Part shown: piece by piece, positions 8,050-30,800 of the stretch
How positions within the stretch are numbered: position 1 is the first letter of the stretch
Layout of the letters: each line of letters opens with the position of its first letter
The notes under the pieces: model-generated
Database searches by the model: none
What the model was told of the DNA's origin: nothing
The model's input: the letters and a program-made list of their open reading frames with translations, nothing else
Translations under genes and position numbers: made by a program
Source of the DNA: Myxococcota bacterium
GTDB taxonomy: Bacteria; Myxococcota_A; UBA796; GCA-2862545
Direction: 5' to 3'
Length of the DNA: 34,206 bases
Assembly: GCA_039208735.1 (NCBI GenBank)
Contig: JBCCQY010000098.1
Span: 1 to 34,206 of the forward strand

Positions 8050-8814
8050 CTATGGCGCAGCGCCAACCACGAGCACCGTGACGTTGTCTTCGCTGCCCGC
8101 GGCCAACGCCTCTTCCGTGAGAACGTGGGCAAGCATGTCGACCGGGGTATCGGCCACGATCTTCTGGATCGCTTCGTCGTCGAGCGGGTCGGTCATGCCA
8201 TCGCTGCAAAGCACAAACACGTCCCCCGGCTGCACGACCCGCGTCGTGGTGTCGGGCTCGACCGGACCATGAAAGCCCACCGACTGGGTGAGAATATGCT
8301 TGTGGGGCAGCAACCGTGCGAGTTCGGGCGTGAGCCGGCCCGCATCGATCTCTTGCTGCACCACGGTATGGTCGCGCGACAACCGGGTCAGTTTGCCGTC
8401 ACGAAACAGATAGGCCCGTGAGTCGCCCACGTGCGCCAGATGGGCTTGGTCGCCATCGACCACCAAAACCACGAGCGTGGTGCCCATGCCCCGGGTCTCG
8501 GGACGACTGTCCGACTCTTTCCGAATCCGAATGCTCGCCTGGTTCATCGCGTAGCGAAGACGCTCCCGCAGTACGTCGGCAGGGTCTTCGGACTCGTGGT
8601 CACGCACCAATCGGGTCTCGTCGGGGTCGACCGCCCCCACGAGCGTCTGGTGCACCACCTCAGTGGCCATTTGCGATGCGACTTCGCCGGCTGCGTGACC
8701 CCCCATGCCGTCGGCGACAATGAACAGCCCAGCGTCCAGATCGATCATCCAGGCGTCTTCGTTGTGCTCGCGAACCGGCCCCGTCTCCGACCGTGCATAG
8801 GCTTCGAGATCCAT
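8050..8814 (-). CDS. PP2C/PPM-family Ser/Thr protein phosphatase (Stp1/PrpC-like)
   Basis: PPM motifs REHNED, VADGMGGHAAGEVAS, GMGTT, HVGDSRAY, DHT, LCSDG and DNVT. Start ATG 8814 after GAGGAAGGG. Confidence 0.96.
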   Translation of the reverse strand: MDLEAYARSETGPVREHNEDAWMIDLDAGLFIVADGMGGHAAGEVASQMATEVVHQTLVGAVDPDETRLVRDHESEDPADVLRERLRYAMNQASIRIRKESDSRPETRGMGTTLVVLVVDGDQAHLAHVGDSRAYLFRDGKLTRLSRDHTVVQQEIDAGRLTPELARLLPHKHILTQSVGFHGPVEPDTTTRVVQPGDVFVLCSDGMTDPLDDEAIQKIVADTPVDMLAHVLTEEALAAGSEDNVTVLVVGAAP

Positions 8815-8925
8815 CCCTTCCTCGCGAACCACGTGGGTGCGTAGCACCCTCGAAACGATAGTGTTGCCATGTAACCGTGGTACTCGACCACGATCATCCG
8901 GGGCTTCGCGCTCCGGGGAGCCCCC

Positions 8926-11900
8926 GTGAGCAACGCTCCTCCTGACTCCTTATCCGCTCGCGAGCCAGAACCTGGTGACCACATTGGACGATTCCGGGTG
9001 ATTCGTCGACTCGCCCGCGGCGGTATGGCGACCGTTTGGGAGGTTCTCGACGAAGACAGCGATGAGTCGCTGGCCCTCAAGCTGCTTCTGCCACTTCCGC
9101 ACACCGACGAGTCCCACGGGCGATTTCGACGAGAGTTTCGCGCGCTGTCCCGCTTGAATCACCCGTGCGTGCTCCAAGTTCACGAATCGGGCCTGCACGG
9201 CGACCGCCCCTGGTTCACCATGGAGCGGCTCACAGGGCACGATCTCAGACAAGAGGTCGAACGCCTCAAGGAGTGTCCGGCGGACGAGCGGTTCGCCAGA
9301 GCCAAAGACATCGTGGTCCAAGTTGCGCGTGCGCTCGCCTACATCCACGAGCGCGGTCTCGTGCATCGCGATGTTTCGCCGGCCAACATCTTCGTGACGG
9401 CACAAGGACCCGTCAAGCTCATGGATTTCGGCGTCGTCAAGGATTCTGGCGTCGAGTTGACCGCGGTGGGCGAGGTCATCGGAACGGTTGCCTACATGGC
9501 ACCCGAACAGATTTCGGGCAAACCCATCGACGCACGGGCCGATCTGTATGCCCTGGGCGCCGTCCTCTACCTGTTATTGACGGGTCGCCGAGCGTTTTCA
9601 GCGCACACGATCCATGGCTACATGGAAAAACACCTCCATGTGCGACCGGCCCCGCCCTCTTCCCACGTTCCGGTGGTTCCGCCAAACCTCGAACACATCT
9701 GTCTGCGGTTGCTCGAGAAGGACCCACGGCACCGCTTCGCCTCGGCGACCCACCTGTTGCATGTGTTGGGGGACGAACAGCCCGCCGATGTGCTCATCGA
9801 TGAGTTCCCGGAGCGCACGGTAGGTCGTGTGGTGCTCACCTCGAGGTTGCGAGAAGCGGTCGAGGTCGTGGGGCAGAGTCGTAAGGGCCAGGTCGTGATG
9901 CTCGCCGGACCGTCAGGTCAGGGCAAGAGCCGCCTCGTCCGATTGGCCGAACACTTCGCGCGCCGGTTGGGGCTCCCGGTAGCCGGCGGGGTGTGCCGGC
10001 CCCACGACCGTCCCTTCGCCGCATTCGAACATGTTTACGATGCGCTCAAGCCGCCAGAGCCTCGCGAGGTGCTCCGCGACTTCTTCGATGCGGACGACGA
10101 AGCCACGATGACCGAGCGCTACCCCATCCTCGCTGCGTTCAAAGACCTCGTCACCGAATCGGCACCCGCCGTCATTTGCATTGACGATGCGCATCATGCC
10201 GACCCCGCGACCGCCGAGCTGCTGCTGTACCTCGTGCGCAACACGCTCGAGCGCGGCGAAGACCCCGTGCTCTACCTTGTCACTCACGATGACTCGCGCT
10301 CCCGCCTCCGCGAACAGCTCGAAGCGTTCGAGTCGTGCGAAGTCCAGGTGGTCGAGCCCCTCGAAGCCTCGGACGTCGAAGAACTCGTGGTGAGCTGGCT
10401 TGGCAGCAGCCCGGCCGCCATCGCGCTCGCCAAACGCCTTCATGCCGAATCACAGGGCGCGCCCGCGCAAATCGTCGACATGCTCCACGGGCTGGTCGAC
10501 GACGGACTCGTCGCGAAGAGTGAGGAAGGTCCGCCCAAACTCATCGCAGACGTGCGGCAAATCTCCCGCTCGCCCATGCCGATGCCGCCGTCGCTCCGAC
10601 AATCGTTGCTCGAGCGACTGGCTCCGATGTCCGAAGACGCGATGGTGGTCGGCCGGGTCCTTGGCCACGCCCGCAACCGATTGCTCCTCGACGTGTTGGT
10701 CGATGCGACGCCCTTCGAAGAAGAACGGGTCATGCAGGCCCTCGACGAGCTGACGGATGCGGGCATCGTGCGCGAACAACGCAGCGGGGATGTCGAGTAC
10801 GTTGAACTGTCCCACAGCCGGTTTCGGGAAGTGCTCGTCGACGGCGTGCCCCCGATGACCCAGCGTGACGTTCACCGCGCCCTTGGCGAGGCCATCGAAA
10901 TGCACCACCGCGGTCGTACCGCCAGCGTGCTCGAGGAACTCGCGCATCACTTTGAGGAAGCTGAGCTGTGGTGCAAGGCCTACCTATACCTGGTCAAGAC
11001 CGGCCAACATCACCAACAGCGCAGCCTTGATTTTCAAGCTCTCGAATACCTAAACCGGGCCGTGGACCTCGAAGCGAGGGCGCGGCCCTTCATGTTGCTC
11101 GACGACGCCGACCATCGGCTAGCCGAGGTCTACCTCGCCGCGGCCCAGGCCCGACATTCCTTGGGTCAGCTTCCCGAGGCGGTTCGAAACACGGAGCGCG
11201 CCCAGGCCCTGGCCCGCATCCTTCGGGATCCAGGTCTTCAATCCAGGGTCGCCGCCGAACTCGGGTCCCAGCTCGCCCAGCAGGGTCAGATGGAGGCCGC
11301 CGAAGAACAGAGCCGCCTCGCGATCCAGCGAGCCGAGGAATCGGGGGTTCGTTCCCTCTTGTCGCGGCCCCTATACCAGCTGGGAGCCGTGCTCTGGACA
11401 CGAGGCGATCTGAACCGAGCTGACGAATTGTGGCGACGAGCGCTCGATATCGCCGAGTCTGTGGGCGATGAGCGAGCCGTGGCCCGGGGCTACAACGGCC
11501 TTGGTGTGTTGGCCATCTGCCGCGGCCAATCCCTCGATGCACGACGCTGGCTCGAGAAGTCCGCCGAGGTCTTTGAGCGGCTCGGCATGCTCGCGCCGTT
11601 GGTGATCACCCGGGTGAACCTGATCGAGCTGTACCTCAATTCGGGCGCTCTCAAAAAGGCGTTGGCCCTGGCAGACCGAACGTTGGCCCAGGCGGAAGAA
11701 GTGAGCCACGGGCAAGGCATCGCGTTGGGATGGGCCTGGCGCGGCCGCATCCTGCTTGTGCTGGGTCGAATCCAGGATGCCGCCCATGCGATTCGCACCG
11801 CAGGCGACCACCTTGGTCCACAGACGAACTGGGAAGACAAAGCCTTCGTGATCAGCGTGCAGGTGCGCATTCACTTTGCCACCGAGATCACCGAGACCAC

Positions 11901-12345
11901 GATGGGGCTGCTCGATGAATTGGAAACGCTCTTTGCGGCGATGCAGCGGATGGGATGGTTGGTCGAGGTACGCGCCTGGCGGATCGTAGCCCTGTCACGC
12001 CTGGGACGGCGAGGAGAGGCCGAGCCTCGCCTTGATGCGCTGAAGTCCGCCACGGGGTGGCCCCAAGTCACGATCCGGGCCGATCTTGCTCTCGGCGACG
12101 CTCAGCACGTGCTGGGCCGTCGTAAGGCGGCTCGCGACACGTTTGCTCGCGCGCTCACCCACGCGGAAGCCAACGGGTACCGCTACTTGCAGCTGCAGGC
12201 TCACCGGGCCTTGCTCGATGTGGTGGATGACGAAGGGGCCAAGGCGCGCCACCTTCGAGTCGCCGCTGGACTTGCGAAATCGCTGGCCGCCAACCTGCCG
12301 CGAGAAGAGGCCGATCGCTTCCTCGTGCACCATCGAGTCGGCTAG
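8926..12345 (+). CDS. Ser/Thr kinase - STAND-type (AAA_16-like) NTPase - TPR protein, paralogue 1
   Basis: Kinase: ARGGMA, ALK, HRDVSPAN, DFG, GTVAYMAPE. Walker A GPSGQGKS (9907-9930), Walker B ICIDD, GAP motif, LSHSRFRE, and C-terminal TPR-like repeats (ARGYNGLGVLA). No TM segment seen. Confidence 0.93.
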   Translation: MSNAPPDSLSAREPEPGDHIGRFRVIRRLARGGMATVWEVLDEDSDESLALKLLLPLPHTDESHGRFRREFRALSRLNHPCVLQVHESGLHGDRPWFTMERLTGHDLRQEVERLKECPADERFARAKDIVVQVARALAYIHERGLVHRDVSPANIFVTAQGPVKLMDFGVVKDSGVELTAVGEVIGTVAYMAPEQISGKPIDARADLYALGAVLYLLLTGRRAFSAHTIHGYMEKHLHVRPAPPSSHVPVVPPNLEHICLRLLEKDPRHRFASATHLLHVLGDEQPADVLIDEFPERTVGRVVLTSRLREAVEVVGQSRKGQVVMLAGPSGQGKSRLVRLAEHFARRLGLPVAGGVCRPHDRPFAAFEHVYDALKPPEPREVLRDFFDADDEATMTERYPILAAFKDLVTESAPAVICIDDAHHADPATAELLLYLVRNTLERGEDPVLYLVTHDDSRSRLREQLEAFESCEVQVVEPLEASDVEELVVSWLGSSPAAIALAKRLHAESQGAPAQIVDMLHGLVDDGLVAKSEEGPPKLIADVRQISRSPMPMPPSLRQSLLERLAPMSEDAMVVGRVLGHARNRLLLDVLVDATPFEEERVMQALDELTDAGIVREQRSGDVEYVELSHSRFREVLVDGVPPMTQRDVHRALGEAIEMHHRGRTASVLEELAHHFEEAELWCKAYLYLVKTGQHHQQRSLDFQALEYLNRAVDLEARARPFMLLDDADHRLAEVYLAAAQARHSLGQLPEAVRNTERAQALARILRDPGLQSRVAAELGSQLAQQGQMEAAEEQSRLAIQRAEESGVRSLLSRPLYQLGAVLWTRGDLNRADELWRRALDIAESVGDERAVARGYNGLGVLAICRGQSLDARRWLEKSAEVFERLGMLAPLVITRVNLIELYLNSGALKKALALADRTLAQAEEVSHGQGIALGWAWRGRILLVLGRIQDAAHAIRTAGDHLGPQTNWEDKAFVISVQVRIHFATEITETTMGLLDELETLFAAMQRMGWLVEVRAWRIVALSRLGRRGEAEPRLDALKSATGWPQVTIRADLALGDAQHVLGRRKAARDTFARALTHAEANGYRYLQLQAHRALLDVVDDEGAKARHLRVAAGLAKSLAANLPREEADRFLVHHRVG

Positions 12346-12446
12346 GCGCAAACCCTGTCCTGGACGACGCATGGCTCGGGCTACCGCCGTTCGCTTCGCG
12401 GCGTCGAGGGTGTGTCGTGGACCCGACCATGGAGTAGGATTTCCGA

Positions 12447-15400
12447 GTGAGGAGATCCCGAGCCTTCGAGGTGCGTAGCTTGAGCCACACAGAGGCGAAC
12501 TGGGGAACGGCGCTGGGCCCTCCCCCCGGTCCGGGCGACACCGTCGCCGGCTACACGATCGACAGCCTGATCGGGTCGGGTGGCATGGCCTCCGTGTACC
12601 GTGCGCGAACCGCGGACCAACAACTCGTCGCGCTCAAGATCGTCAACCCGGCACGCGTTCTCCCCGAAGACGTGCGGCGGTTCACCCGCGAATACCGCGC
12701 CCTCGCCAGCATGGACCACGAGAACATCGTGAAGGTGCACGAGGCCGGAGTCGACGAAGGCTATCCGTGGCTCGCCATGGAACTCGTAGACGGGATCGAC
12801 CTCGAGACCCAGATCATCCAGTGGCAACAGCACGACGTGCCCGATCGCTACGCCCACATCGAGTCGATCCTCAGGGGGCTCTGCAAGGGCCTCGCCTACG
12901 TGCACGACCAGGGGCTCATTCACCGCGATCTCAAGCCATCGAACGTGCTGCTGACGAAGGACGGCCGGCCCAAGATCAGCGATTTTGGCGTGGTGAAGGC
13001 GGACTCGACGGCCAGTACCCAGCTCACGTTGGCCGGGCGGCTCGTGGGCACCGTGGCCTTCATGGCCCCCGAACTCATCACGACCGACGAAGACGTCGAC
13101 CGCCGCGCGGATCTCTACGGTCTTGGGGCGGTGTTGTACGTGATGTGCACGTTCCGCCGCCCCATCGAAGCCGAGAGCGTCGCGGGCTACCTCGCGCGAC
13201 ACCTCACCGAGATCCCCAAGCCCATCACAGAAATCGAGCCGCAGGCGCCGCTCATTTTTGAGCGGATCGCGCAGCGCCTCCTCCAGAAGGACCGGACGTT
13301 CCGTTATCCGAACGCCCATTCGGTGCTGCAAGCGCTCGATCGGGCGGACAGCAACGACATGCCACCGCTACGGGGGCGCGATGAGCCCATGCACGCCTTC
13401 GCTCGACGCCTCCAGGCCCTGCGGGACGGAGCCGGCGGCGTGTTGGCGATCCGCGGGCCACGGGGCGCGGGCAAGTCTCACCTCCTCGACGTGATGCTGG
13501 ATCAAGTTCGTTCGCAGGGCCTCGCGCTGGGCCGCGCCGACCACCGGTCGACCACGGTGATGGCGGACCTTGGCCGCTCCCTGGCCGATGAGCCGACGCC
13601 GAGCGCAGAAGAACTCCAGGCGTTGCTCACGCGCAATCCTGAGACACCGACCGTGCTCGCCGTCGATGATCTCGATCGCGCTCCGGCTGTCGATGTGCGC
13701 GAACTCACGCGCCTGGTCCGGGCGCTAGTCGGGGTGGAAGCTCGTCCGGTGCTGGTCGTGTTCACAGCCACCGAGCTGGAGGGAGAACCGAAGGCGCTGC
13801 AAAGCGGTAGCGCCACCGGACTGCCGAGCGCCAACCTTGATCTGGGGCCGCTCGACAACAAGTCGAGCATCGCGTTGGTGCGTGACCGAGGGGTCTCGGG
13901 TCCTGCTGCACCGGCACTCGGCCGCCGCCTGTGCGCGATGTACGATGGGCTCCCAGGACCCATGACCGAGCAGCTGGAGGCTTTGCAGGCCGAGGGCTGG
14001 CTCATCCGCGACGGCGACCAGTGGAAGGCCACGCGCCCCCTCGATCACCTTCGCAAAGCAGATCTCCCCGTTCCCCGCAAGGTGGCCCAACGAATCGAAG
14101 CGCAAGTTGCCGAACTGACTTCGGTCGAGCGCGAGATCGTTCAACTGCTCGCCCTTCTCGACCGGCCGGGTAGCGCAGCGTTGGTGGAACGCTGCTTTCC
14201 CAACGATCGAACCATTGCTCGATCGGTGGATGACCTGGTCGGCACCGGCGTGCTTAGTCGCACCATGGAGGAGCAACAAGAACTCGTCGCGCTGGCAGAT
14301 CCCTGCGCACCTCGCGTCGTCCGGAGGCTCATTTCACCCGAGGTGAAGCCTGGATTGCACCTTCGCCTCGCGCAGGCGCTGCAGGCCCGACGGCGACGGT
14401 CCAACGCGCTCGAAGTCGCCCACCACCTACGGGCGGCTGGACAGGTCGGGGAGGCATGGCCCCGCTACATCGAGGCCGCACGCCGGTCTGCTCGCGAGGG
14501 GCTGTACTCCGAGGTCATTGAGATCTGCCGCCACGCGGAGGAGATCGAGGCCGAGGCGGTGCTCCAAGGAGACCCCACCGAGACCCTTCGCAATCGCCGC
14601 TGGCTGTACCTGCTGAAGGGCGAGGCCCTGGCATCACGCCGAGCCTGGGCCGAGTCCCTTGCACCCTTGTCGGAAGCGGTGGCGGTGGCGCGTGAAGACG
14701 GAGATGAAGATTCCATTTCGCGGTGCTTGGGCTCGCTCGGCCGGGCGTACCATCGGCTGGGTCGCTACGCCGAAGCGGAGCCGCGCTTGCGAGAAGCCTT
14801 GGCCCACCTGGGGCAGGGCGCCCCGGATCGCGCGAGCACCTTGCGAACCCTCGCCGATGTGCAACTGCAACAGGGACGCATGCCAGAGGCTGAACAACTC
14901 TGGACGGAAGCCCGCGACCTGGCCATCGAGGTCGGGAACCCAGACGCAGAAGCCCGGGCCCTGCGCGGCCTTGGCCACCTTCGCGCTTTGGAAGGGCAGC
15001 TCGAAGAGGCGAGCCGCTTGCTCAACCGCGCCGACGACCTCCTCCAAGACGATGGCGATTACCGCGTGCGGGCGGGTGTCCTCGCACGGGCGGCGGCCAT
15101 CGCGGCGGCGTCGGGTCACTACGATCGGTCGTTGTACCGGGCCGAGCTGCTTGTGGAGTTGTCGAAGCGCCACGGCATGGCAGACCGTATGCCCATCGCC
15201 TACGCCCAACTTGCGGAAGTTCATCAGGTGCTGGGGGCGCAAGCCGAGGCACTGGCCGCGGTGCACCAATGCATGGTGTTTGCGGGGGCCTCAAACACCC
15301 CGTGCGCCGATGCTCGGCTGCGGGCAGCGCGGGTCCTCCTCGATTTGGGCCAGCCCGCCGATGCCTGGCAGGCGTTGCCGACCGTCGAGGACCTCTCGGC

Positions 15401-15845
15401 AAGTCCCATCGACACCCCCGCCCTTCAGCTGACCCTGCTCCGAGCTCGCATCTCGGCCGCCGACGATGCAGCGCGCACCCGAGCCACCTGCGAACAGGCC
15501 ATCGAACAGACCCCGCCGCTCGACCAAATCATGCGGGCGACCTTGCTACTTGATGCCATCAAAGCGCTGTGGACGGCACGGCAGGCCGACCTTGCCGATG
15601 AGCTCGCGGTGCGAGCGCTCGACGTGTTGGGCAGGATCGTGCCCTGCGATGGACTCCAGCTTGAAACGTGGCTCCTGCGGCAGCAGATCGAGGCAGGTCG
15701 CACCGACGCTGCTCCGCCGGTCCAAAGCACCGACCGTGTGCGTCAGCTCGCTCGAGGGCTGCTCCCCAAGCTGCCACCTCAGGCCGCGGAACACTTCCGA
15801 GGACGCCCAGGCATCGTGACGGTGGTCTCACCAGACGGATATTGA
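12447..15845 (+). CDS. Ser/Thr kinase - STAND-type NTPase - TPR protein, paralogue 2
   Basis: Kinase: GSGGMA, VALK, HRDLKPSN, DFG, GTVAFMAPE. Walker A GPRGAGKS (13455-13478), Walker B LAVDD, GLP, TPRs (SRCLGSLGRAYHRLG). The start may be TTG 12480, which follows GAGGTG. Confidence 0.92.
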   Translation: MRRSRAFEVRSLSHTEANWGTALGPPPGPGDTVAGYTIDSLIGSGGMASVYRARTADQQLVALKIVNPARVLPEDVRRFTREYRALASMDHENIVKVHEAGVDEGYPWLAMELVDGIDLETQIIQWQQHDVPDRYAHIESILRGLCKGLAYVHDQGLIHRDLKPSNVLLTKDGRPKISDFGVVKADSTASTQLTLAGRLVGTVAFMAPELITTDEDVDRRADLYGLGAVLYVMCTFRRPIEAESVAGYLARHLTEIPKPITEIEPQAPLIFERIAQRLLQKDRTFRYPNAHSVLQALDRADSNDMPPLRGRDEPMHAFARRLQALRDGAGGVLAIRGPRGAGKSHLLDVMLDQVRSQGLALGRADHRSTTVMADLGRSLADEPTPSAEELQALLTRNPETPTVLAVDDLDRAPAVDVRELTRLVRALVGVEARPVLVVFTATELEGEPKALQSGSATGLPSANLDLGPLDNKSSIALVRDRGVSGPAAPALGRRLCAMYDGLPGPMTEQLEALQAEGWLIRDGDQWKATRPLDHLRKADLPVPRKVAQRIEAQVAELTSVEREIVQLLALLDRPGSAALVERCFPNDRTIARSVDDLVGTGVLSRTMEEQQELVALADPCAPRVVRRLISPEVKPGLHLRLAQALQARRRRSNALEVAHHLRAAGQVGEAWPRYIEAARRSAREGLYSEVIEICRHAEEIEAEAVLQGDPTETLRNRRWLYLLKGEALASRRAWAESLAPLSEAVAVAREDGDEDSISRCLGSLGRAYHRLGRYAEAEPRLREALAHLGQGAPDRASTLRTLADVQLQQGRMPEAEQLWTEARDLAIEVGNPDAEARALRGLGHLRALEGQLEEASRLLNRADDLLQDDGDYRVRAGVLARAAAIAAASGHYDRSLYRAELLVELSKRHGMADRMPIAYAQLAEVHQVLGAQAEALAAVHQCMVFAGASNTPCADARLRAARVLLDLGQPADAWQALPTVEDLSASPIDTPALQLTLLRARISAADDAARTRATCEQAIEQTPPLDQIMRATLLLDAIKALWTARQADLADELAVRALDVLGRIVPCDGLQLETWLLRQQIEAGRTDAAPPVQSTDRVRQLARGLLPKLPPQAAEHFRGRPGIVTVVSPDGY

Positions 15846-15881
15846 GGGGCCTCCACCCTCCTCCCCCACGAAACCGGTCCC

Positions 15882-18800
15882 ATGCCACCGTCGCCCGAAG
15901 AACCCATCGAAATGGGCGGAATGCTGCTCGAATCTGGCTCACGGATCGGCAGCTACGTCTTTTTGCGCGCCATCGGCTCGGGCGGCATGGCACGCGTGCT
16001 CCTTGCCAAGGACCCAGCGGGGCAGCTCGTCGCGCTGAAAGTACTGCGCAAGTCGCGTTTCAAGACCGGCCTTGCACGGTTCCGACGGGAGTTCCGAGCC
16101 CTGTCGCGCATTCACCACCCCAATGTGATTCGCGTCGAAGCCTATGGCGACCTCCACGGCCATCCGTTCATCGCCATGGAGTACGTCGACGGACCCGACT
16201 TACACAGCAAGATTCGCGAATTTCGCACCTGGGATCCCGAACGCCGTTGGCGCAGGGTCGAGCAGGTCCTCATCGATCTGTGCAGGGCCCTGTCCGCGAT
16301 TCACCGCCGAGGGCTCGTGCACCGAGACCTCAAGCCGTCGAACGTCCTCGTCAATCGCGAAGACATCTGCAAACTGACCGACTTTGGCATCGTCAAAGAT
16401 TTGGATCCCAGCCACGATCCACATCTGTCGACCACCCTCGTGGGCACCTGGGCTTACGCAAGCCCCGAGCAAATTACGGGCAGTCCGCTCGATCACCGAT
16501 CCGATCTGTACAGTCTGGGCGTAATTCTGTTTGCGATGTTGACGGGTAAACGTCCGTTTGTCGCAAATGACATGGCGGGCTACCTCGCCCTCCACCGTGA
16601 CCGACCCGCCCCCGCGCCGCGCGACGTGTCGCGGAACGTGCCCGAGCACCTCGATGAGATCTGTCGTCGATTGCTCCAAAAGGCCCCTCGAGATCGGTAC
16701 CAGTCCGCGCAGGAAATCTTGTACCGGCTCGAAGCCGAAGAGCGGATGCCTCCCGCTCGACCCTTCGATGGCTGGCGCGCACCGTTGGTGGGCCGCGACC
16801 TCGAACGGGAAGCCATCACGGACGCCGTCGCCGGCCTCACGGCAAGCCGCGGCGGCATGCTCGTGCTTGAAGGCGACGACGGCGTCGGTAAGACGCGCTT
16901 GCTCGAAGTGGCCGAGGAGCGTGCACGAGCCTTGGGCATTCCCGTCATCGCAGCTCGGTTCGATCCCGGTGGGCTGCCCTTTGCCACGTTGCTCGGACTC
17001 GCCATGCGCGCGCTCGATGATCTGGGGGGACGAGGCTCTCCCCACGTGAAGACGGTGCTGCAACGGCTCTTGAACCTCGAGGCCATCCATGCCGAACAGG
17101 TGGGGTCGGTCGTCGATGCCTGCCAGCAAGCCTTCGCTTCGGTCCTCGATGAGGGACCTCGGCTCGTGCTCATCGACGATGTTCATGAGGCGAGTCCTCG
17201 AGCCATCGGTGCGCTCACCCTGATCGCCCGCCGTATTCTCGGTGAACTCGAACTCCCGATGCTCCTCGTGGCGTCCGTACGATCCCACGCCAACCACGCC
17301 GCCGATGCACTCGCATCCGGACAAGGGGTGGGTCTCGCGCCCAAGGAGATGAGTGTCGAAGTGCTGTCCCGCGAGGACGTCACGCAGCTCGTGCATCACC
17401 TGGTAGGCAACACGGTGGCGGCGCGGACCCTCGCCCAACGACTCTTTCTCGAGACCGAAGGCAACGCGTCGCTGCTTGACGCCTTCATCCAGCAACTGCT
17501 CGAACGCGGTTTGGTGCGCCCGACGCTCGAAGGGGGCCACGAGCTGCACATGCAGACCGACGAAATCGCAGACGGCCACTTCGATATTCCCGCTTCTGTA
17601 CGACAGATGATGCGCGATCGACTCACGCGCGTCGCGCCTGGAGAACTCGCGGTGCTGCAAGTTCTCGCCGTCGAACGTCGAGAGATCGACCTCGACGTCC
17701 TCATCGAAGTGGTCGACCGCGATGAAGAAGTGGTCATCGAGCGCCTTGAGGCCTTGATCACGGCCGGTATCGCGCGTATGCGGGATGTCGGCTCCACCAC
17801 CTTTGCGAGCGTGGTGCAGCGCAAGCTCGCCGATGTGGTGTACCGCGACCTCCCTGCGGAGCGCCGGGCCGATCTGCATCGCCGTCTCGCGGCTGCCATG
17901 GAGTTGCACTACGCCAACCAGCCGGCCGCCCTTGAGATCGTGGGAGACCACTACCGGCAAGCCGGGGATGCAGGACGCGCCTACCGGTATCTCGTCGCCG
18001 CGGCCAAGCGCCTCGCCGACCGCCTGCGCATGGCTGAAGCCTGGGACCTTACGGAACGAGCGGGAACCCTGGCCGAGTCCGCCAGAACCGACCTCGACGA
18101 TGCGATGTTCGCTGAGTTCCGCCACGATCATCTGACGGTACGCGCCACCGTGCTCTCCGATCGTGCGGAGTGGACCGACGCAGAAGTGGCCTGGCGGGCC
18201 GTTCTCGATGTGGCCGGCCAACTCGAAGATCCCCGTGCCACCAGCGAGGCCCAGCTCCAATTGGCCACGGTGCTAAGGCATCGCGGCGAACTCGAGGCGA
18301 GCCGGCAGTTGGCTAACCTCGCCCTCAATACGAGTCGCCACCTCCACTTTCGCGAGGGCATGGCCGACGCACTGCTCTGCCTCGCCGAACTCGCCTGGGC
18401 TGAAGGTCGTCCCGAACGCAGCGAACCGTTTGCTGCCGAAGCGCTCGAGATCGCAAAGGGTCGTCACCTCGCGGGTCGACGGGCGGAGCTGTTGCGCGTG
18501 GTTGCCCGGGCCCAAACCTGGCGGGGAGAACTCGCGTCGGCAACGCAGGGCCTTGCAGAAGCGGAGGGGATCTTCCAGCGTCTCAAACGCAAGCGGTCGC
18601 GTTGCCTTGCCCTTGCCAATCTCGCAGAACTGCTGATGTGGCAAGGCCAGCCCGTGGAAGCTCGGCAACGGGCGCACGTGGCCCTCGAACTCTCGCGGGA
18701 GTTGCAGTACCGCGTAGGCTTGCTGCCGGCGATGCGGGTCATGGGCTCAGCCGCGGTCGATCTCGGCCTCCATGAAGAAGCCCGGCCGGCCTTGTTCGAG

Positions 18801-19373
18801 GTGGAAACGCTCGCCGACACCATGGGTCAACACGACGAGCAAGTCGCCGGGTTGACGGCGCTGGTCCGTCTCGAACTCGACCGTGGCGATCCAGAGCAGG
18901 CCCGCACCTATGGCCGCAAGGCGTTGACCGTGCTGCCCAGCCACGATCCACGACGGGCGCGGCCGCTCGTCGAAGCCCTCTTGGCCATCGCCGAAGCCCC
19001 CGATCACCAAGATGCCGCCCGCCAACTTGCCGATCGTGCGGAGCGAGGGCTTGATCGACTGCCCGTGGCCCCCAAGGTCCACACGAGCCTAGCCCTGGCT
19101 CGCGCTAGGTTCATCCTTGGCAACGCCGAAGCCGGAATCGCTCACGCCCGCCAGACGGTCGCCTTGGCCGAGACCCATGGCTTTTCGTTGGTCAGCATGG
19201 AAGCCCACGCGATGCTCGCCCGTCGCGGCCCTAAGGCCGACCGTGCGCACCACGAGGAACGAGGTCGAGACGGCCTCAAGCGGTTGCTCGGCCCCCTCGC
19301 GAAAGACATGGCCCGTGCCCTCCAAGACCGACCGGGACTTCAAACGATCGCGATCGGATCCTCGTCAGGATGA
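15882..19373 (+). CDS. Ser/Thr kinase - STAND-type NTPase - TPR protein, paralogue 3
   Basis: Kinase: GSGGMA, VALK, HRDLKPSN, DFG, GTWAYASPE. Walker A GDDGVGKT (16872-16895), Walker B VLIDD, TEGNA, TPR-like C-terminus. Confidence 0.93.
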   Translation: MPPSPEEPIEMGGMLLESGSRIGSYVFLRAIGSGGMARVLLAKDPAGQLVALKVLRKSRFKTGLARFRREFRALSRIHHPNVIRVEAYGDLHGHPFIAMEYVDGPDLHSKIREFRTWDPERRWRRVEQVLIDLCRALSAIHRRGLVHRDLKPSNVLVNREDICKLTDFGIVKDLDPSHDPHLSTTLVGTWAYASPEQITGSPLDHRSDLYSLGVILFAMLTGKRPFVANDMAGYLALHRDRPAPAPRDVSRNVPEHLDEICRRLLQKAPRDRYQSAQEILYRLEAEERMPPARPFDGWRAPLVGRDLEREAITDAVAGLTASRGGMLVLEGDDGVGKTRLLEVAEERARALGIPVIAARFDPGGLPFATLLGLAMRALDDLGGRGSPHVKTVLQRLLNLEAIHAEQVGSVVDACQQAFASVLDEGPRLVLIDDVHEASPRAIGALTLIARRILGELELPMLLVASVRSHANHAADALASGQGVGLAPKEMSVEVLSREDVTQLVHHLVGNTVAARTLAQRLFLETEGNASLLDAFIQQLLERGLVRPTLEGGHELHMQTDEIADGHFDIPASVRQMMRDRLTRVAPGELAVLQVLAVERREIDLDVLIEVVDRDEEVVIERLEALITAGIARMRDVGSTTFASVVQRKLADVVYRDLPAERRADLHRRLAAAMELHYANQPAALEIVGDHYRQAGDAGRAYRYLVAAAKRLADRLRMAEAWDLTERAGTLAESARTDLDDAMFAEFRHDHLTVRATVLSDRAEWTDAEVAWRAVLDVAGQLEDPRATSEAQLQLATVLRHRGELEASRQLANLALNTSRHLHFREGMADALLCLAELAWAEGRPERSEPFAAEALEIAKGRHLAGRRAELLRVVARAQTWRGELASATQGLAEAEGIFQRLKRKRSRCLALANLAELLMWQGQPVEARQRAHVALELSRELQYRVGLLPAMRVMGSAAVDLGLHEEARPALFEVETLADTMGQHDEQVAGLTALVRLELDRGDPEQARTYGRKALTVLPSHDPRRARPLVEALLAIAEAPDHQDAARQLADRAERGLDRLPVAPKVHTSLALARARFILGNAEAGIAHARQTVALAETHGFSLVSMEAHAMLARRGPKADRAHHEERGRDGLKRLLGPLAKDMARALQDRPGLQTIAIGSSSG

Positions 19374-19525
19374 AGCCGCAATCGATATCGTGTGTGCTAC
19401 CGTCCGACAGAGGGCTGGAATTGGTTGTCCCAGGTGTCGATCCGACCAGCTACCCTTCTTACGCGACTTCCGCTCTGCCAAAAGTTCGTCCCCCCACCTG
19501 GATGCTTCCTCGACCTGGAGAGACC

Positions 19526-20614
19526 ATGCGCCATCTTGTCTCGCTCGCGGCCGTGGCCATCATGGCAATGGCCTGTAGCGGCGACACCGTTGTCCAAGCC
19601 ACCAAGAATCGCCCCGGCGTTGAACTGCGGACCGCCGAGTTTTGCACGGACCGTGATGCGACGGAGGGCTTCGCCTCCTTCGTCGTCAAAACCATCGATG
19701 GCGGTGCCGTTCCGGCAAGCGAGACCACGATCACGCAAACGATCGATGGCGAAGCGCCTGGATCGGGCCTTTGGGAAGGCGGACAGTCGCTCGACGAAGA
19801 GAACCTGTCGAGCGACATCCACGTGACGCTGTTGCTCGACGCGAGTGATTCCGTGGTCGAAGCCAAACTGTTCGATCTGATGAAGGAGTCGGCCGAGCAG
19901 CTTCTTCGTGATGGCGAGACACAGTGGGCCGAACGGCCGGGCAACTTCACGTGGCAGGTCATCTGGTTCAACCAGTGGGTGAGCCGCGCCGACGGCGATT
20001 GGACGTTCGACGACATCGCCGACATCCCAGCTCCTCCTCAAGAATTCGACGGTTTCACCCGGCTGTACTCGGCGATGGAGTTCGCGGTCCGCAACGCCAG
20101 CGAAGCGCGGACCAACGGAATCGCTGCGGGTGACCGGGATAATCACCTCCTCGCGGTGTTCACCGACGGTCGGGACAACATCAGCGGTCTCGACAGTGAA
20201 GAGCCGCCGGTGGTCGATGGTCTCACCAAGAATGGAGCTGCGTTCACGACCTTTGCGACGAACGCGATCAATCGGGCCCAGCTCGAAGAGCTGATGCGCA
20301 ACCGTCCGTGGCTTCAGGTCTCGCTGCTCGGCTTTGGTAGCAGCATCGATTCCGAAGAGCTGGATGCCCTGGCCGAGGCCGGTGGTGGCACGGTGTACGA
20401 AGGCAACGACATCGAACGGCTCTTCACCCGCGCCCAGCGTTCGTTCGAGATCCTGCAGACCGTCGGCTGGCGCCTGCCCTTCAACCCAGACGAGCCCCAC
20501 ATCTGGGAACTCGAATTCACCGTGAATGGCATCAAACGGTCCGCTTCCATCAAGCTCGATGCCGAGCGCACGGCTCAGACGCCGGAATGTGAAGAAGACA
20601 AGACCGTGCAGTAG
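19526..20614 (+). CDS. von Willebrand factor A (vWA) domain lipoprotein
   Basis: Start ATG 19526 after GGAGAG gives the signal MRHLVSLAAVAIMAMA-C. MIDAS elements LLLDASDS, FTRLY and VFTDG, plus LGFG and LAEAGGG. Confidence 0.88.
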   Translation: MRHLVSLAAVAIMAMACSGDTVVQATKNRPGVELRTAEFCTDRDATEGFASFVVKTIDGGAVPASETTITQTIDGEAPGSGLWEGGQSLDEENLSSDIHVTLLLDASDSVVEAKLFDLMKESAEQLLRDGETQWAERPGNFTWQVIWFNQWVSRADGDWTFDDIADIPAPPQEFDGFTRLYSAMEFAVRNASEARTNGIAAGDRDNHLLAVFTDGRDNISGLDSEEPPVVDGLTKNGAAFTTFATNAINRAQLEELMRNRPWLQVSLLGFGSSIDSEELDALAEAGGGTVYEGNDIERLFTRAQRSFEILQTVGWRLPFNPDEPHIWELEFTVNGIKRSASIKLDAERTAQTPECEEDKTVQ

Positions 20615-21161: not shown

Positions 21162-22094
21162 CTATCCGCCGCTTGTGGTCTCGAGCTGCGGAGGCGCCTC
21201 GCCTTCGATCTCCTGGGCCCCCTGATGGTCGGCGAGCTGGGGGACCGAAGACTGTGGATCGTAGATCTCGGCAACCCCGTCGGTCACCGCGATCGTGCCG
21301 ACCCACTGCCGGTCGAGCCGACGCTGGATGTCCTCGCGTTGCTGGCCGTAGAACAGCCGCGTCACGAACCAGGAAGCTTCCTCGGCACTGGGGGACCCCA
21401 CGACGGCAATCACGGGGACTCGCCGCTCGCCTGCGTACAGCATCGCCTCGGCGGCTGGGGCTTCATCGATGTCGCCGAGCGCCACGAGGTTGGTACCCAC
21501 ACGAATGGCTTGAATGATGCCCGTTCGGTAGTCAGGCACATCCGTTCCCACCTCACGATGGCTGATCGCCGCCATCGCATCCCGATGCAGGTAGGTGAGT
21601 GGACTCTCAAGAATCACCACGTTGGCCCGCTCACGTGCATTGAATCCCTGCACCAGCGCATGCATGGTCGCGATGCGTTGACGTCCGGCCACCAGCAACA
21701 CGCCAGGCCGCCCCACGAACCGCTCCACATTGGCATCGAGCCCGAGTTCGTCGAGGGAAGGGACCCGGGTATTCACGCGATGAACCACCGCGCCAAGGCT
21801 GCCCCGTTGCTTGTAGATGTAGGCGCGAAACCGACCGAGTTGGTTGATGCCGAACGAAAACTCGTGGTCGGTGATGACGGCCACGGGAATCTCGATGTGG
21901 CCCAAGGCGCAGAGCGCGAACACGGCAGCCTTGACATCCGCGGGGGAAAGCGGAGGCAGGTTGGTCGGAACCAGCACGCCATTGGGCATCCGCATCAGCG
22001 GCCGATTCGGGACCTTGAAGTGGACCTCCTCGGCGCCACCGTCGGTCGCTTCACGAAGCACGCGCAGCATGGTGTCTCGGCTGATGTTGGTCAT
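21162..22094 (-). CDS. PilT/PilU-like protein lacking ATPase motifs (pseudo-ATPase)
   Basis: PilT N-domain (EVHFKVPNRPLMR, FSFGINQLGRFRAYIYKQRG, PSLDELGL) and ISHREVGTD are clear. Walker A is reduced to VLLVAGRQRIAT. Start ATG 22094 after CAGGAG. Confidence 0.88.
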   Translation of the reverse strand: MTNISRDTMLRVLREATDGGAEEVHFKVPNRPLMRMPNGVLVPTNLPPLSPADVKAAVFALCALGHIEIPVAVITDHEFSFGINQLGRFRAYIYKQRGSLGAVVHRVNTRVPSLDELGLDANVERFVGRPGVLLVAGRQRIATMHALVQGFNARERANVVILESPLTYLHRDAMAAISHREVGTDVPDYRTGIIQAIRVGTNLVALGDIDEAPAAEAMLYAGERRVPVIAVVGSPSAEEASWFVTRLFYGQQREDIQRRLDRQWVGTIAVTDGVAEIYDPQSSVPQLADHQGAQEIEGEAPPQLETTSGG

Positions 22095-22136
22095 GAACCG
22101 CTCCTGATTCCAGCATCGGATCGAGAACACGGCCTT

Positions 22137-28069: not shown

Positions 28070-29029
28070 TCAGTGAGCGGAAGGCTGTCCCAGGTCTCCG
28101 ACCCAGCGCCAAACCCAGCGCAATACCTGATTCGACCAGGATGGTCCTGGCCATTCGTCCCACCAGGTCGAGGGCTCGTCGTGTTTGTAACGAATGCGTG
28201 ACGCGAAATCGCAAGACGCCCCGACGAGCGCTCGCGCCATCTCTTCCGCAGATGCCCACCGCGCGGTCCGTTTAGGCGCCGCACCCACATCGACGAACTC
28301 GCGAAACTCGGGGGGGATCGCGCGCATCACGTCTTCGTTGTCGCGACGTTGGAGCAAGATCTCGGGTCGGTTGCCGCTCATGAGCTGGTAGAGCGTCACT
28401 GCGGTCGAGTACAAATCTGCTCGCACATCGGCTTCTCGGGCATCGGCCGACAATTCCGGAGCCGAATAGCCGAAGGACCCCATGGAAGCACCCGGAATGG
28501 TGCGGAATGGGACCGCCGATACAGGATGTCGAGCCAATCCAAAGTCTGCGACGAGAATGCGGCCATCGTCACCGACGAGCAAGTTGCTGGGTTTGATGTC
28601 GCGATGAACCAGCCCATGCCGATGCACCGCATCAAGCGCAAGCAAGGTCTCGAAAATCCATCGGGCAACCTGAATGGGGTGCACCGCTCGAGCCGACCGA
28701 CTCGCATCGCGCAGGGTTCCGTTCGCCGCGTACTGCATCGCATACCAGTGAAAACCGGTCGAAGCCGACGTGCCCGCGGCGTAGACCGGGACCACATGCG
28801 GATGGCGAAACGCCTGAAGCGCCTTGGCCTCTGCGATGAAACGCTGCGCGTTGCCGTGCGAGCCCTCGGCCAGTGCGTCGAACACCTTGATGGCCACAGA
28901 CTGGTCCGCGCGATTGTCCCAATACAGGTGAACGCTCGCCATTCCGCCGTTGCGAAGGTGCCGCTGATATACGAAACGTCCATTGCCGAGCGTGCGCGGC
29001 GTCTGGACCGTGGAACGCGAGCCCTTCAC
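28070..29029 (-). CDS. Stand-alone Ser/Thr protein kinase
   Basis: [40 protein letters not shown], and a Trp-rich C-terminal tail. Start set at GTG 29029 after GGAG. Confidence 0.9.
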
Positions 29030-29102
29030 CAGAGATTCTCCGTGTCCCAGAGAGTACCTGGCAGACTCCTGGGTGGCGGTTGCTAACCGGTTGCACCTCG
29101 CT

Positions 29103-30800
29103 ATGACCATTTTCGTGGTGGATTGTCCTCGGTGTGGCGCCGACATGACGGGTCGGGCCCGGTGTGTGAAGTGCGGTGCGGCGGCACCCACCCTCGCCAT
29201 GGACGACGTGGAAATGGCGCCTTCCAGCGGGCCTACGCCGCCCGGATCCTCCCGCCTGCTCGCCCCGGGAACTCGACTCGGACCCTATGTGGTCGAAGAG
29301 TTGCTTGGCGAAGGTGGCATGAGTGCCGTGTACGCCGCGATCGACGAGAGCTTGTCGCGAGATGTAGCGTTGAAAGTACTCCATCCCAATCTGGTCGGGG
29401 ATGAAGGGATTCGGCGACGCTTTTTACGAGAGGGGTTGATCACGCGAGGGTGGTCTCACCGCAACGTCGTAGCGATGTACGATACGGTCACCGCACAGGA
29501 CATCTACGCGCTTGTGATGGAGCGGGTCTCCGCCCCCACGTTGCGCGAGGTCCTCGAATCGTGGCACGGCGGATTGCCTCCACGGGAACTCGGTCAGATC
29601 GCGGTGGGGATCCTCTCAGGCCTCCAAGCCGCACACGATCATGGCGTCGTGCATCGAGATTTGAAGCCGGGCAACGTGCTCATCGAGCACCATGCGACAG
29701 GATTGGTGCCCCGGATCATCGACTTTGGAATTGCCCGAGTGCTCGAGGGCACAACCTACACCTTGACCGGGGCGGTGATGGGAACGTGCCGGTACATGTC
29801 TCCCGAACAGGTGCGTGGTGAAGTCGTCGACCACCGATCGGACCTCTACACGTTCGGCATCGTGCTGTACGAACTTGCCACGGGACAAGCGCCGTTTGTC
29901 GATCCGCAACCCTACGCGCTGATGATGGCCCATACGACGCGCGATCCAGCCCCGCCACGAAGTGTGCGACCCGGGCTCCACCCCGCCATCGAGACGACGA
30001 TTCTCGAGTGTCTGGCTAAGGACCCAAACGCTCGGCCACCCCACGCAGACCAGCTCATCGCGCGCCTCAACCACGAACTCGGAGTGGACCGACCGCCACG
30101 CGAACCTCCCAGCGGAGCGGTGGGGAATCACCACGAGCTAGTTCGCATCGATGGTGGGGCCTTCCAGATGGGGTCCGACCGCCGTGGCATCGTCCTTGAT
30201 GCGTTCAGTATCGACCGACATCCCGTCACCAACGCGCAATTCCACGCGTTCCTGACCGCAACAGGGTACCGACCGCAAGACCTCCATCGCTTCGTGGCCC
30301 ATTGGCCGAGCCTCGATGGACCTCGAGCGGACCAACGAAACCATCCCGTGGTGTTCGTCAGTTGGGCCGACGCTACGGCCTACGCGGGCTGGATGGGCCT
30401 CCGATTGCCCACAGAGGCCGAATGGGAGAAAGCGGCCCGTGGAACGGACGGTCGCCGCTACCCTTGGGGTCGCCAAACCCCCACCGTGCAGCGAGCCTGG
30501 TACGGGCAGCGCAGTGGCACCGCGGCGATTGGGGGACGTCCCCAGGGAGCCTCCGTCTTCGGGATCCACGACCTTGCGGGCAACGTCTGGGAGTGGTGTG
30601 CAGACCGCAATGATGCCGAGTTCTATGCGAATGGCCCCAAGATGAACCCGCGACGTCCGGTCACCGAGGCCGACGACCCCGTCGTCGTGCGAGGCGGCGC
30701 CTGGATGTTCGACGATCCCAAGTCACTGCGCACCTATACGCGGGGAGGACACCCAGCTTCGGTCCGTCTCAACACGGTAGGCTTTCGGTGCGCGGGATGA
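29103..30800 (+). CDS. Zinc-ribbon - Ser/Thr kinase - FGE-sulfatase (SUMF1-like) domain protein
   Basis: CPRC..CVKC. Kinase [33 protein letters not shown]-fold motifs [39 protein letters not shown]. Start is approximate (ATG 29103 or a nearby GTG). Confidence 0.92.

Follow-up and report, generated by a model that had tools for sequence, protein, structure and literature searches.

The locus described here lies on contig JBCCQY010000098.1 (C98) of a Myxococcota bacterium (assembly GCA_039208735.1, genome G000; 9.4 Mb, 288 contigs, 92.7% complete), and the window, meaning the whole stretch of 34,206 nucleotides that was analysed, is this entire contig. It encodes three consecutive large proteins, K1, K2 and K3, each joining a Hanks-type kinase to a STAND NTPase and an array of tetratricopeptide repeats (TPR), together with a divergently transcribed PP2C-type Ser/Thr phosphatase. 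K1 (8926..12345, + strand, 1139 amino acids) consists of the kinase, a nucleotide-binding domain (NBD), a helical domain (HD) and a winged-helix domain (WHD), followed by an arm and the TPR array. K2 (12447..15845, + strand, 1132 amino acids, start codon uncertain) and K3 (15882..19373, + strand, 1163 amino acids) share this architecture, K2 being the fastest-evolving paralogue and K3 the one with the best conserved kinase domain. All three match Pfam Pkinase, AAA_16 (above cut-off) and TPR_12, and each matches TPR_MalT below its curated cut-off. The phosphatase, called PP2C in the following (8050..8814, − strand), matches PP2C_2 (PF13672) and has 254 amino acids counted from the ATG at 8814, its open frame reaching further to a GTG at 8847. 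The 111 bp between this ATG and K1 (8815..8925) form a divergent intergenic region and candidate shared promoter.

A preliminary description of this DNA had recognised three consecutive genes of one architecture lacking transmembrane segments, a PP2C diverging across a 111-bp gap and strongly diverged TPR regions, and all of this holds. The signatures RFxRE[FY]RAL, DFG[VI]VK and GY[ML]xxH are present in all three translations, the gap was confirmed from ATG 8814, and no clear transmembrane segment is seen in K1–K3, since their hydropathy over 19 residues reaches at most 1.56. The paralogues are pairwise 27–32% identical and their TPR regions score 50–133 bits against each other versus 457–560 bits against themselves; though different between paralogues, the TPRs are conserved among orthologues. 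The genome holds nine full-length PP2C-like open reading frames (ORFs), of which only this one lies less than 3 kb from a kinase gene. As the arrangement also recurs across the order, the linkage of kinase and phosphatase is more than expected by chance.

Conservation and phylogeny of the locus

Forty relatives from 35 genera (that of the window included) and seven families of one order were searched, 40 stretches being inspected and displaced genes followed. K1, K3 and PP2C were each found in 39 of the 40 (not in G019) and K2 likewise in 39 (not in G005); all four genes are present in 38, assemblies of 3–4 Mb among them. In every one of the 36 genomes with both genes on one contig PP2C is divergent from K1, once with an inserted gene, which agrees with the earlier proposal of a dedicated phosphatase; in three more genomes the contig breaks at the 5' end of K1. 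K1-K2-K3 run uninterrupted in 20 genomes, share a stretch with insertions or rearrangement in seven, are dispersed in nine, unclear owing to contig breaks in two and incomplete in two. The nine genomes in which one or more kinase genes have moved away still contain all three kinases, which are therefore non-redundant, although contact between them does not follow. Synteny had been named beforehand as the point on which the idea of a four-gene linkage could fail, and the linkage was found conserved across these relatives.

In a wider sample of the class, PP2C orthologues were detected in 111 of 122 genomes of the order and in none of 28 others (E ≤ 1e-65). Among ten of the genomes without a match, K1 is present in four, in two of which the start of the gene falls at a contig edge; a further one has K3 alone, and the other five (70–93% complete) have no K1 either. 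Genus g16 seemed to have lost PP2C, K1 and K3, a reading that was discarded since K1, K2 and K3 are present in G144. Profiles of K1 and PP2C run over 300 genomes of the phylum, with two candidates per genome scored in part of the scan, matched 42 of 43 genomes of the order, two of 14 other genomes of the class, where the homologues are weaker and unlinked, and none of the remaining 243. The search of the class and phylum samples gave no orthologous locus beyond the order. The named K1 relatives among 76 protein matches are all records from metagenomes or metagenome-assembled genomes.

A FastTree phylogeny of 69 kinase-STAND rows was built, which includes only proteins of this lineage and gave long-branch warnings among the outgroups. 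K1, K2 and K3 form orthologue clades with support of 100, 99 and 100, and together they group with an 800-amino-acid, TPR-less protein of a sister lineage (support 96), away from the other kinase-STAND proteins of the genome. That the duplications are old, as had been assumed, is supported. The trees of K1, K2, K3 and PP2C have most supported splits in common, with no or one conflict per pair and rho of 0.86–0.94. By these comparisons, the four genes form one unit that has been inherited vertically within a single Myxococcota-related order. The 800-amino-acid protein (L103:9267-11666, genome G042) stops after the winged-helix region, is equally related to K1–K3 and can serve as a natural TPR-less outgroup.

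A shorter fourth kinase-STAND-TPR paralogue, K4, directly follows K3 in several loci; outside family f1 it occurs in 11 of 16 genomes, and inside the family in none of 25. Its NTPase region is degenerate (copies at L057:2470-4851, L059:15279-17714, L065:14355-16676 and L069:14215-16521). Because K4 is this common outside f1, the ancestor probably had four paralogues. Among the rearranged loci, K3 is inverted and convergent on K2 in G020 (L039:3972-7478), and in G025 PP2C sits between K1 and K2-K3-K4; K genes are frameshifted in G013, G033 and G037 (L038, L062, L069), probably through assembly errors. The genome of the window carries a second tandem pair of kinase-AAA_16 genes of about 1200 amino acids each (G000:C28:66791-73908, L120), which belong to a separate clade. 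Homologues of this pair occur in 28 of the 40 relatives, 15 of which have two side by side that exceed the threshold. Tandem retention of STAND kinases recurs in the lineage.

Kinase, NTPase and repeat regions

Orthologues were aligned from near-full-length ORFs, the window included (39 rows for K1, 31 for K2, 28 for K3 and 40 for PP2C), omitting six loci that were duplicates as well as copies with truncations or frameshifts. The kinase domain of K1 (residues 24–278) matches the fold of PknB (Z 31.7, root-mean-square deviation 2.3, 253 residues aligned) in a structural comparison whose matches were taken up by this domain, as a Foldseek search with the K1 model also found (E 4e-15). The VAIK Lys, the αC Glu, the HRD Asp, the following Asn and the DFG Asp are invariant in all rows of the three kinases, and the activation-loop Thr (T179 in K1, T194 in K2 and T185 in K3) is kept in 37 of 39 K1, 31 of 31 K2 and 26 of 28 K3 sequences. 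The catalytic loop of K1, HRDVSPAN (9364-9387), lacks the usual Lys; all 39 K1 orthologues read HRDx[TS]PxN, with Thr (29) or Ser (10) in its place. This Lys (HRDxKxxN) is present in every K2 (31/31) and K3 (28/28) sequence and in 113 of the 146 kinase ORFs of the genome.

The NBD-HD-WHD part of K1 spans about residues 298–640. An AlphaFold2 model of K1 (mean predicted local distance difference test, pLDDT, 88.5; predicted template modelling score, pTM, 0.58) contains the kinase, a five-stranded NBD, the helical and winged-helix domains, the arm and the TPR array, and Foldseek aligned it with the STAND-TPR protein 6mfv (E 1.7e-12, 741 columns, 13% identity, root-mean-square deviation 25). A sequence search of the PDB with the STAND-TPR part of K1 returned no STAND protein, its matches being TPR proteins and, weakly, a single P-loop peptide, and the ESM Atlas led to generic AAA_16-TPR clusters. 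In the window the Walker A motifs read GPSGQGKS in K1 (9907-9930), GPRGAGKS in K2 (13455-13478) and GDDGVGKT in K3 (16872-16895). Among orthologues the Walker A Lys is found in 34 of 39 K1 and 21 of 28 K3 sequences and in only four of 31 K2 sequences, 23 of which have Arg at this position, while GK[ST] is kept in nine of ten other STAND proteins examined from the genome of the window. The Walker B Asp-Asp pair is largely kept in all three groups of orthologues. The paralogues are thus specialised, with a fixed catalytic-loop change in K1 and an altered P-loop mostly in K2. For K2 this change weakens the case for a ligand-triggered, ATP-dependent oligomeric switch.

Least conserved is the NBD (mean identity 0.38, 0.30 and 0.37 in K1, K2 and K3), and the TPR regions are equal to it or above (0.41, 0.32 and 0.43). 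The ratios of nonsynonymous to synonymous substitution rates (dN/dS) of the TPR regions are 0.075, 0.127 and 0.142, as calculated from one genome pair, the window and its congener G001, with dS near saturation. These values indicate that the TPRs evolve under purifying and not diversifying selection. A TPR region related to that of K2 also occurs elsewhere in the genome, where a 4Fe-4S and FAD oxidoreductase is fused to it via a linker (G000:C44:7087-10482; L130:5088-8480). The likeness is specific to K2 (269 bits versus at most 81 for the others), and the linker repeats the motif [DE]xTxx[LIV] (5 versus 0.6 in shuffled sequences). Beyond the locus, another TPR match of the K2 type was found in five of five genomes of the genus and only there, the fusion itself having been read in G000 alone.

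The phosphatase and the divergent gap

The metal-binding residues Asp20, Asp35, Asp205 and Asp243 of PP2C are invariant in all rows, its AlphaFold2 model shows a PPM fold (pLDDT 91.7, pTM 0.89), and its dN/dS for the same genome pair is 0.019. It scores 218.6 bits with the Stp1/IreP equivalog NF033484, under the cut-off of 230. Between two helices lies a conserved, flexible loop of low confidence (pLDDT 62–66), DPDETRLV (residues 63–70; 8605..8628, − strand), in which P64, E66 and T67 are present in 40 of 40 sequences, D63 in 39, L69 in 38 and R68 in 36. It is absent from the eight other PP2Cs of the genome and has the counterparts DPEMT and DPEAT in two sister-order PP2Cs. The loop fits the published site motif of PknA (PMC7164672), in which positions −1 and −4 are acidic, +3 is Val and +4 is Arg, and Thr67 could serve as phosphoacceptor or for docking.

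Within 150 bases upstream of PP2C the hexamer TATAnT occurs in 27 of 40 regions (shuffled sequences: 1.1, maximum 6); 17 of the 40 have it on both strands (shuffled: 0.1). The gap in the window lacks the exact motif and carries the variant GATAGTGT at 8857-8864 instead of the conserved TATAGT; a sigma-70 consensus scan of this gap gave no site. We regard the conserved −10-like hexamer as part of a candidate shared promoter. Overlapping −10 elements are reported to drive divergent transcription in many bacteria, and the geometry of the PP2C-K1 gap differs from the commonest one described (10.1101/2020.01.31.928960).

Neighbouring genes and the question of defence

The flanks of the locus turn over, and the neighbours seen in the window are limited to its genus. 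A vWA-like ORF (19370..20614, + strand) that overlaps the K3 stop by 4 nt has a weak VWA match and lies outside the conserved unit; it was rejected as a component, being beside K3 in one of 40 stretches (G001, same genus), as was a flanking gene of 401 amino acids found in four of 40 stretches, all within the genus. In 22 stretches a GldAFG-like ABC operon (ABC_tran, ABC2, ABC_transp_aux, DUF4340; e.g., L035:16240-19899) is convergent on PP2C. Its ABC_transp_aux and DUF4340 genes were not found in the genome of the window, and with no DUF4340 or GldG-like homologue in this 92.7% complete assembly the operon was rejected as a required partner. A trypsin-like gene is convergent on K3 in about 13 stretches. 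The window further contains a divergent pair of Ser/Thr kinase genes (28070-29200, − strand, and 28983-30800, + strand), one fused to an FGE-sulfatase-like domain, and a PilT/PilU-like ATPase ORF (21162-22130, − strand; 104 bits versus a family cut-off of 319) that is possibly degenerate.

For the question of immunity, the proteins of the locus and its neighbours were compared with PADLOC. The best 25 matches listed for each protein cover the kinase domain alone. Of 234 flanking ORFs called, 225 were scanned, nine fragments of kinase genes being left out, and 14 of them match PADLOC (E ≤ 1e-15): seven kinase domains, two ABC ATPases and five others. No plasmid match was found at E ≤ 1e-40.

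Discussion

We propose, at a probability of roughly 0.6, that K1–K3 and PP2C make up one core pathway working as a phosphorylation switch. Intact catalytic residues, the activation-loop Thr, fixed differences between the paralogues, co-retention, tree congruence and purifying selection are observed and support it. By analogy with MalT/PH0952 and PknK, each kinase would be kept inactive by the STAND-arm-TPR region of the same protein and released once the TPRs bind a conserved cellular partner. The released kinase would then be activated by phosphorylation of its activation loop, the co-regulated PP2C would reset the kinases, and K1–K3 would act as non-redundant steps of the same pathway. The STAND domain of K2 may bind nucleotide and hydrolyse it poorly, making K2 more of an adaptor or sensor. 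Whether the kinases touch one another is a separate matter, and we give a heteromer somewhat less than an even chance; it is plausible because self-associating proteins, once duplicated, often cross-assemble and because the P-loop of K2 is changed. Tentatively, a kinase could exert feedback, as in PstP, by phosphorylating or binding Thr67 in the PP2C loop. Cell-level physiology, such as the state of the envelope, motility or growth, is a more likely output than suicide of the cell.

Several observations weigh against this proposal. G005 (75% complete) has K1 adjoining K3 and no K2 was found there, and in G019 (94% complete) K2 only was found, so the four-gene set may not be obligatory; moreover K2 or K3 has gone from the locus in nine of 40 genomes. 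K2 retains the Walker B Asp-Asp, Gly-Arg and GxP positions and in the window even the Walker A Lys, and therefore its NTPase may still work. The kinase tails of the genome show no enrichment of acidic-Thr motifs resembling that of the PP2C loop (27 versus 25.5 in shuffled sequences; five patterns, none enriched), the dN/dS values come from the single pair given above, and a neighbour that matches PADLOC and is neither kinase nor ABC protein occurs in four of 39 loci, none being recurrent.

The dispersal of K2 and K3 in these nine genomes also fits a simpler explanation, in which K1–K3 are independent sensor kinases, adjacent owing to their tandem origin, and PP2C is a housekeeping phosphatase kept in place by the promoter it shares with K1. 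The −10-like element could alone hold the two genes together, 146 kinase-domain ORFs face nine PP2Cs in the genome, and the ABC operon, unrelated but kept beside PP2C in 22 stretches, shows that old synteny persists without an evident functional link. However, PP2C and K1 are never more than one gene apart while all flanks turn over, their orthologues share one phyletic range in the 300-genome sample, and the altered P-loop of K2 and the fixed loop change of K1 fit a division of labour; we therefore consider this explanation unlikely, though worth keeping in mind.

In a bolder form of the proposed pathway, K1–K3 (with K4 in most families outside that of the window) would be subunits of a STAND-kinase holoenzyme that is obligately heteromeric and serves as a domesticated NLR-like hub; K2 would be its hydrolysis-poor adaptor, and PP2C a regulatory subunit bound to it and switched when the loop Thr is phosphorylated. 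We regard this as doubtful; if true, it would be a bacterial core signalling complex built of NLR-type parts and defining a whole order.

In an NLR- or Avs-like immunity against phages or predators, TPRs would sense foreign proteins, kinases would arrest the cell and PP2C would prevent autoimmunity. A role in defence had been suggested at the outset, and the locus has the effector-STAND-TPR architecture of Avs; the trypsin-like gene convergent on K3 would fit it, and defence and non-defence STAND clades are interspersed according to 10.64898/2026.01.04.697583. The same source gives a null of 1.5% for whole defence systems, which the four of 39 loci exceed, single hidden Markov model matches being a looser criterion than whole systems. 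On the other side stand a near-universal single copy with congruent trees, compared with about 0.35% of genomes for CARD-NLR systems (PMC13236601), TPRs that are not diversifying, PADLOC matches that among the best 25 per protein are confined to the kinase domain, and the lack of plasmid matches and of recurrent defence neighbours in the ORFs scanned. A guard of conserved self proteins would evolve slowly too and may also be compatible with the data, yet as a whole the evidence points away from phage defence and towards a PknK/MalT-type signalling module that is inherited vertically, which makes the immunity role quite improbable.

We found no published description of a fixed multi-paralogue kinase-STAND locus with a dedicated phosphatase in the mostly open-access texts searched; the parts are already known and such a locus appears to be new. 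It is suited to studying the division of labour among duplicated NLR-like STAND proteins, with a P-loop change in one copy and a catalytic-loop change in another, and to asking about STAND heteromers outside immunity. As all four proteins are predicted to be soluble, this is possible in vitro without culturing the host.

Like PknK from Mycobacterium tuberculosis, a soluble STAND kinase related to MalT that homodimerises and regulates growth (PMC4381067, PMC9045387), K1–K3 join a soluble Hanks kinase to a STAND module; the likeness is one of description, and unlike the single gene of PknK there are three, ancestrally probably four, fixed paralogues and a linked PP2C. STAND-TPR proteins are described as autoinhibited at rest through NBD-arm and NBD-sensor contacts and as multimerising on inducer binding (PMC6468293). 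The K1 model with its NBD-HD-WHD, arm and TPR layout and its match to 6mfv resembles MalT/PH0952, but its effector is a kinase instead of a DNA-binding domain and many orthologues carry Arg in place of the Walker A Lys. A conserved linkage of PP2C and Hanks kinase is shared with PstP-PknA/PknB and Stp1/Stk1, and PstP is itself regulated by Thr phosphorylation (10.1101/2022.02.28.482390), recalling the Thr of the PP2C loop. In contrast to these membrane kinases K1–K3 are predicted to be soluble, and PP2C is divergent and not co-operonic. The effector-STAND-repeat layout is also that of Avs, bNACHT and CARD-NLR proteins, which are patchy and fast-evolving, whereas here purifying selection acts on a core locus. 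Plant paired NLRs work as sensor and helper, and the altered P-loop of K2 recalls them. The SWACOS clade is said to comprise cyclase- or kinase-fused STANDs, a view attributed to Leipe in 2004, and compared by architecture alone the kinase, AAA_16 and TPR order resembles these NTPases. Finally, myxobacterial kinomes are reported to show poor synteny and very little co-organisation of kinases and phosphatases (PMC2887360); in contrast, the kinase trio and its phosphatase are single-copy and linked across seven families, and they therefore point to an important pathway of a lineage known from metagenomes only.

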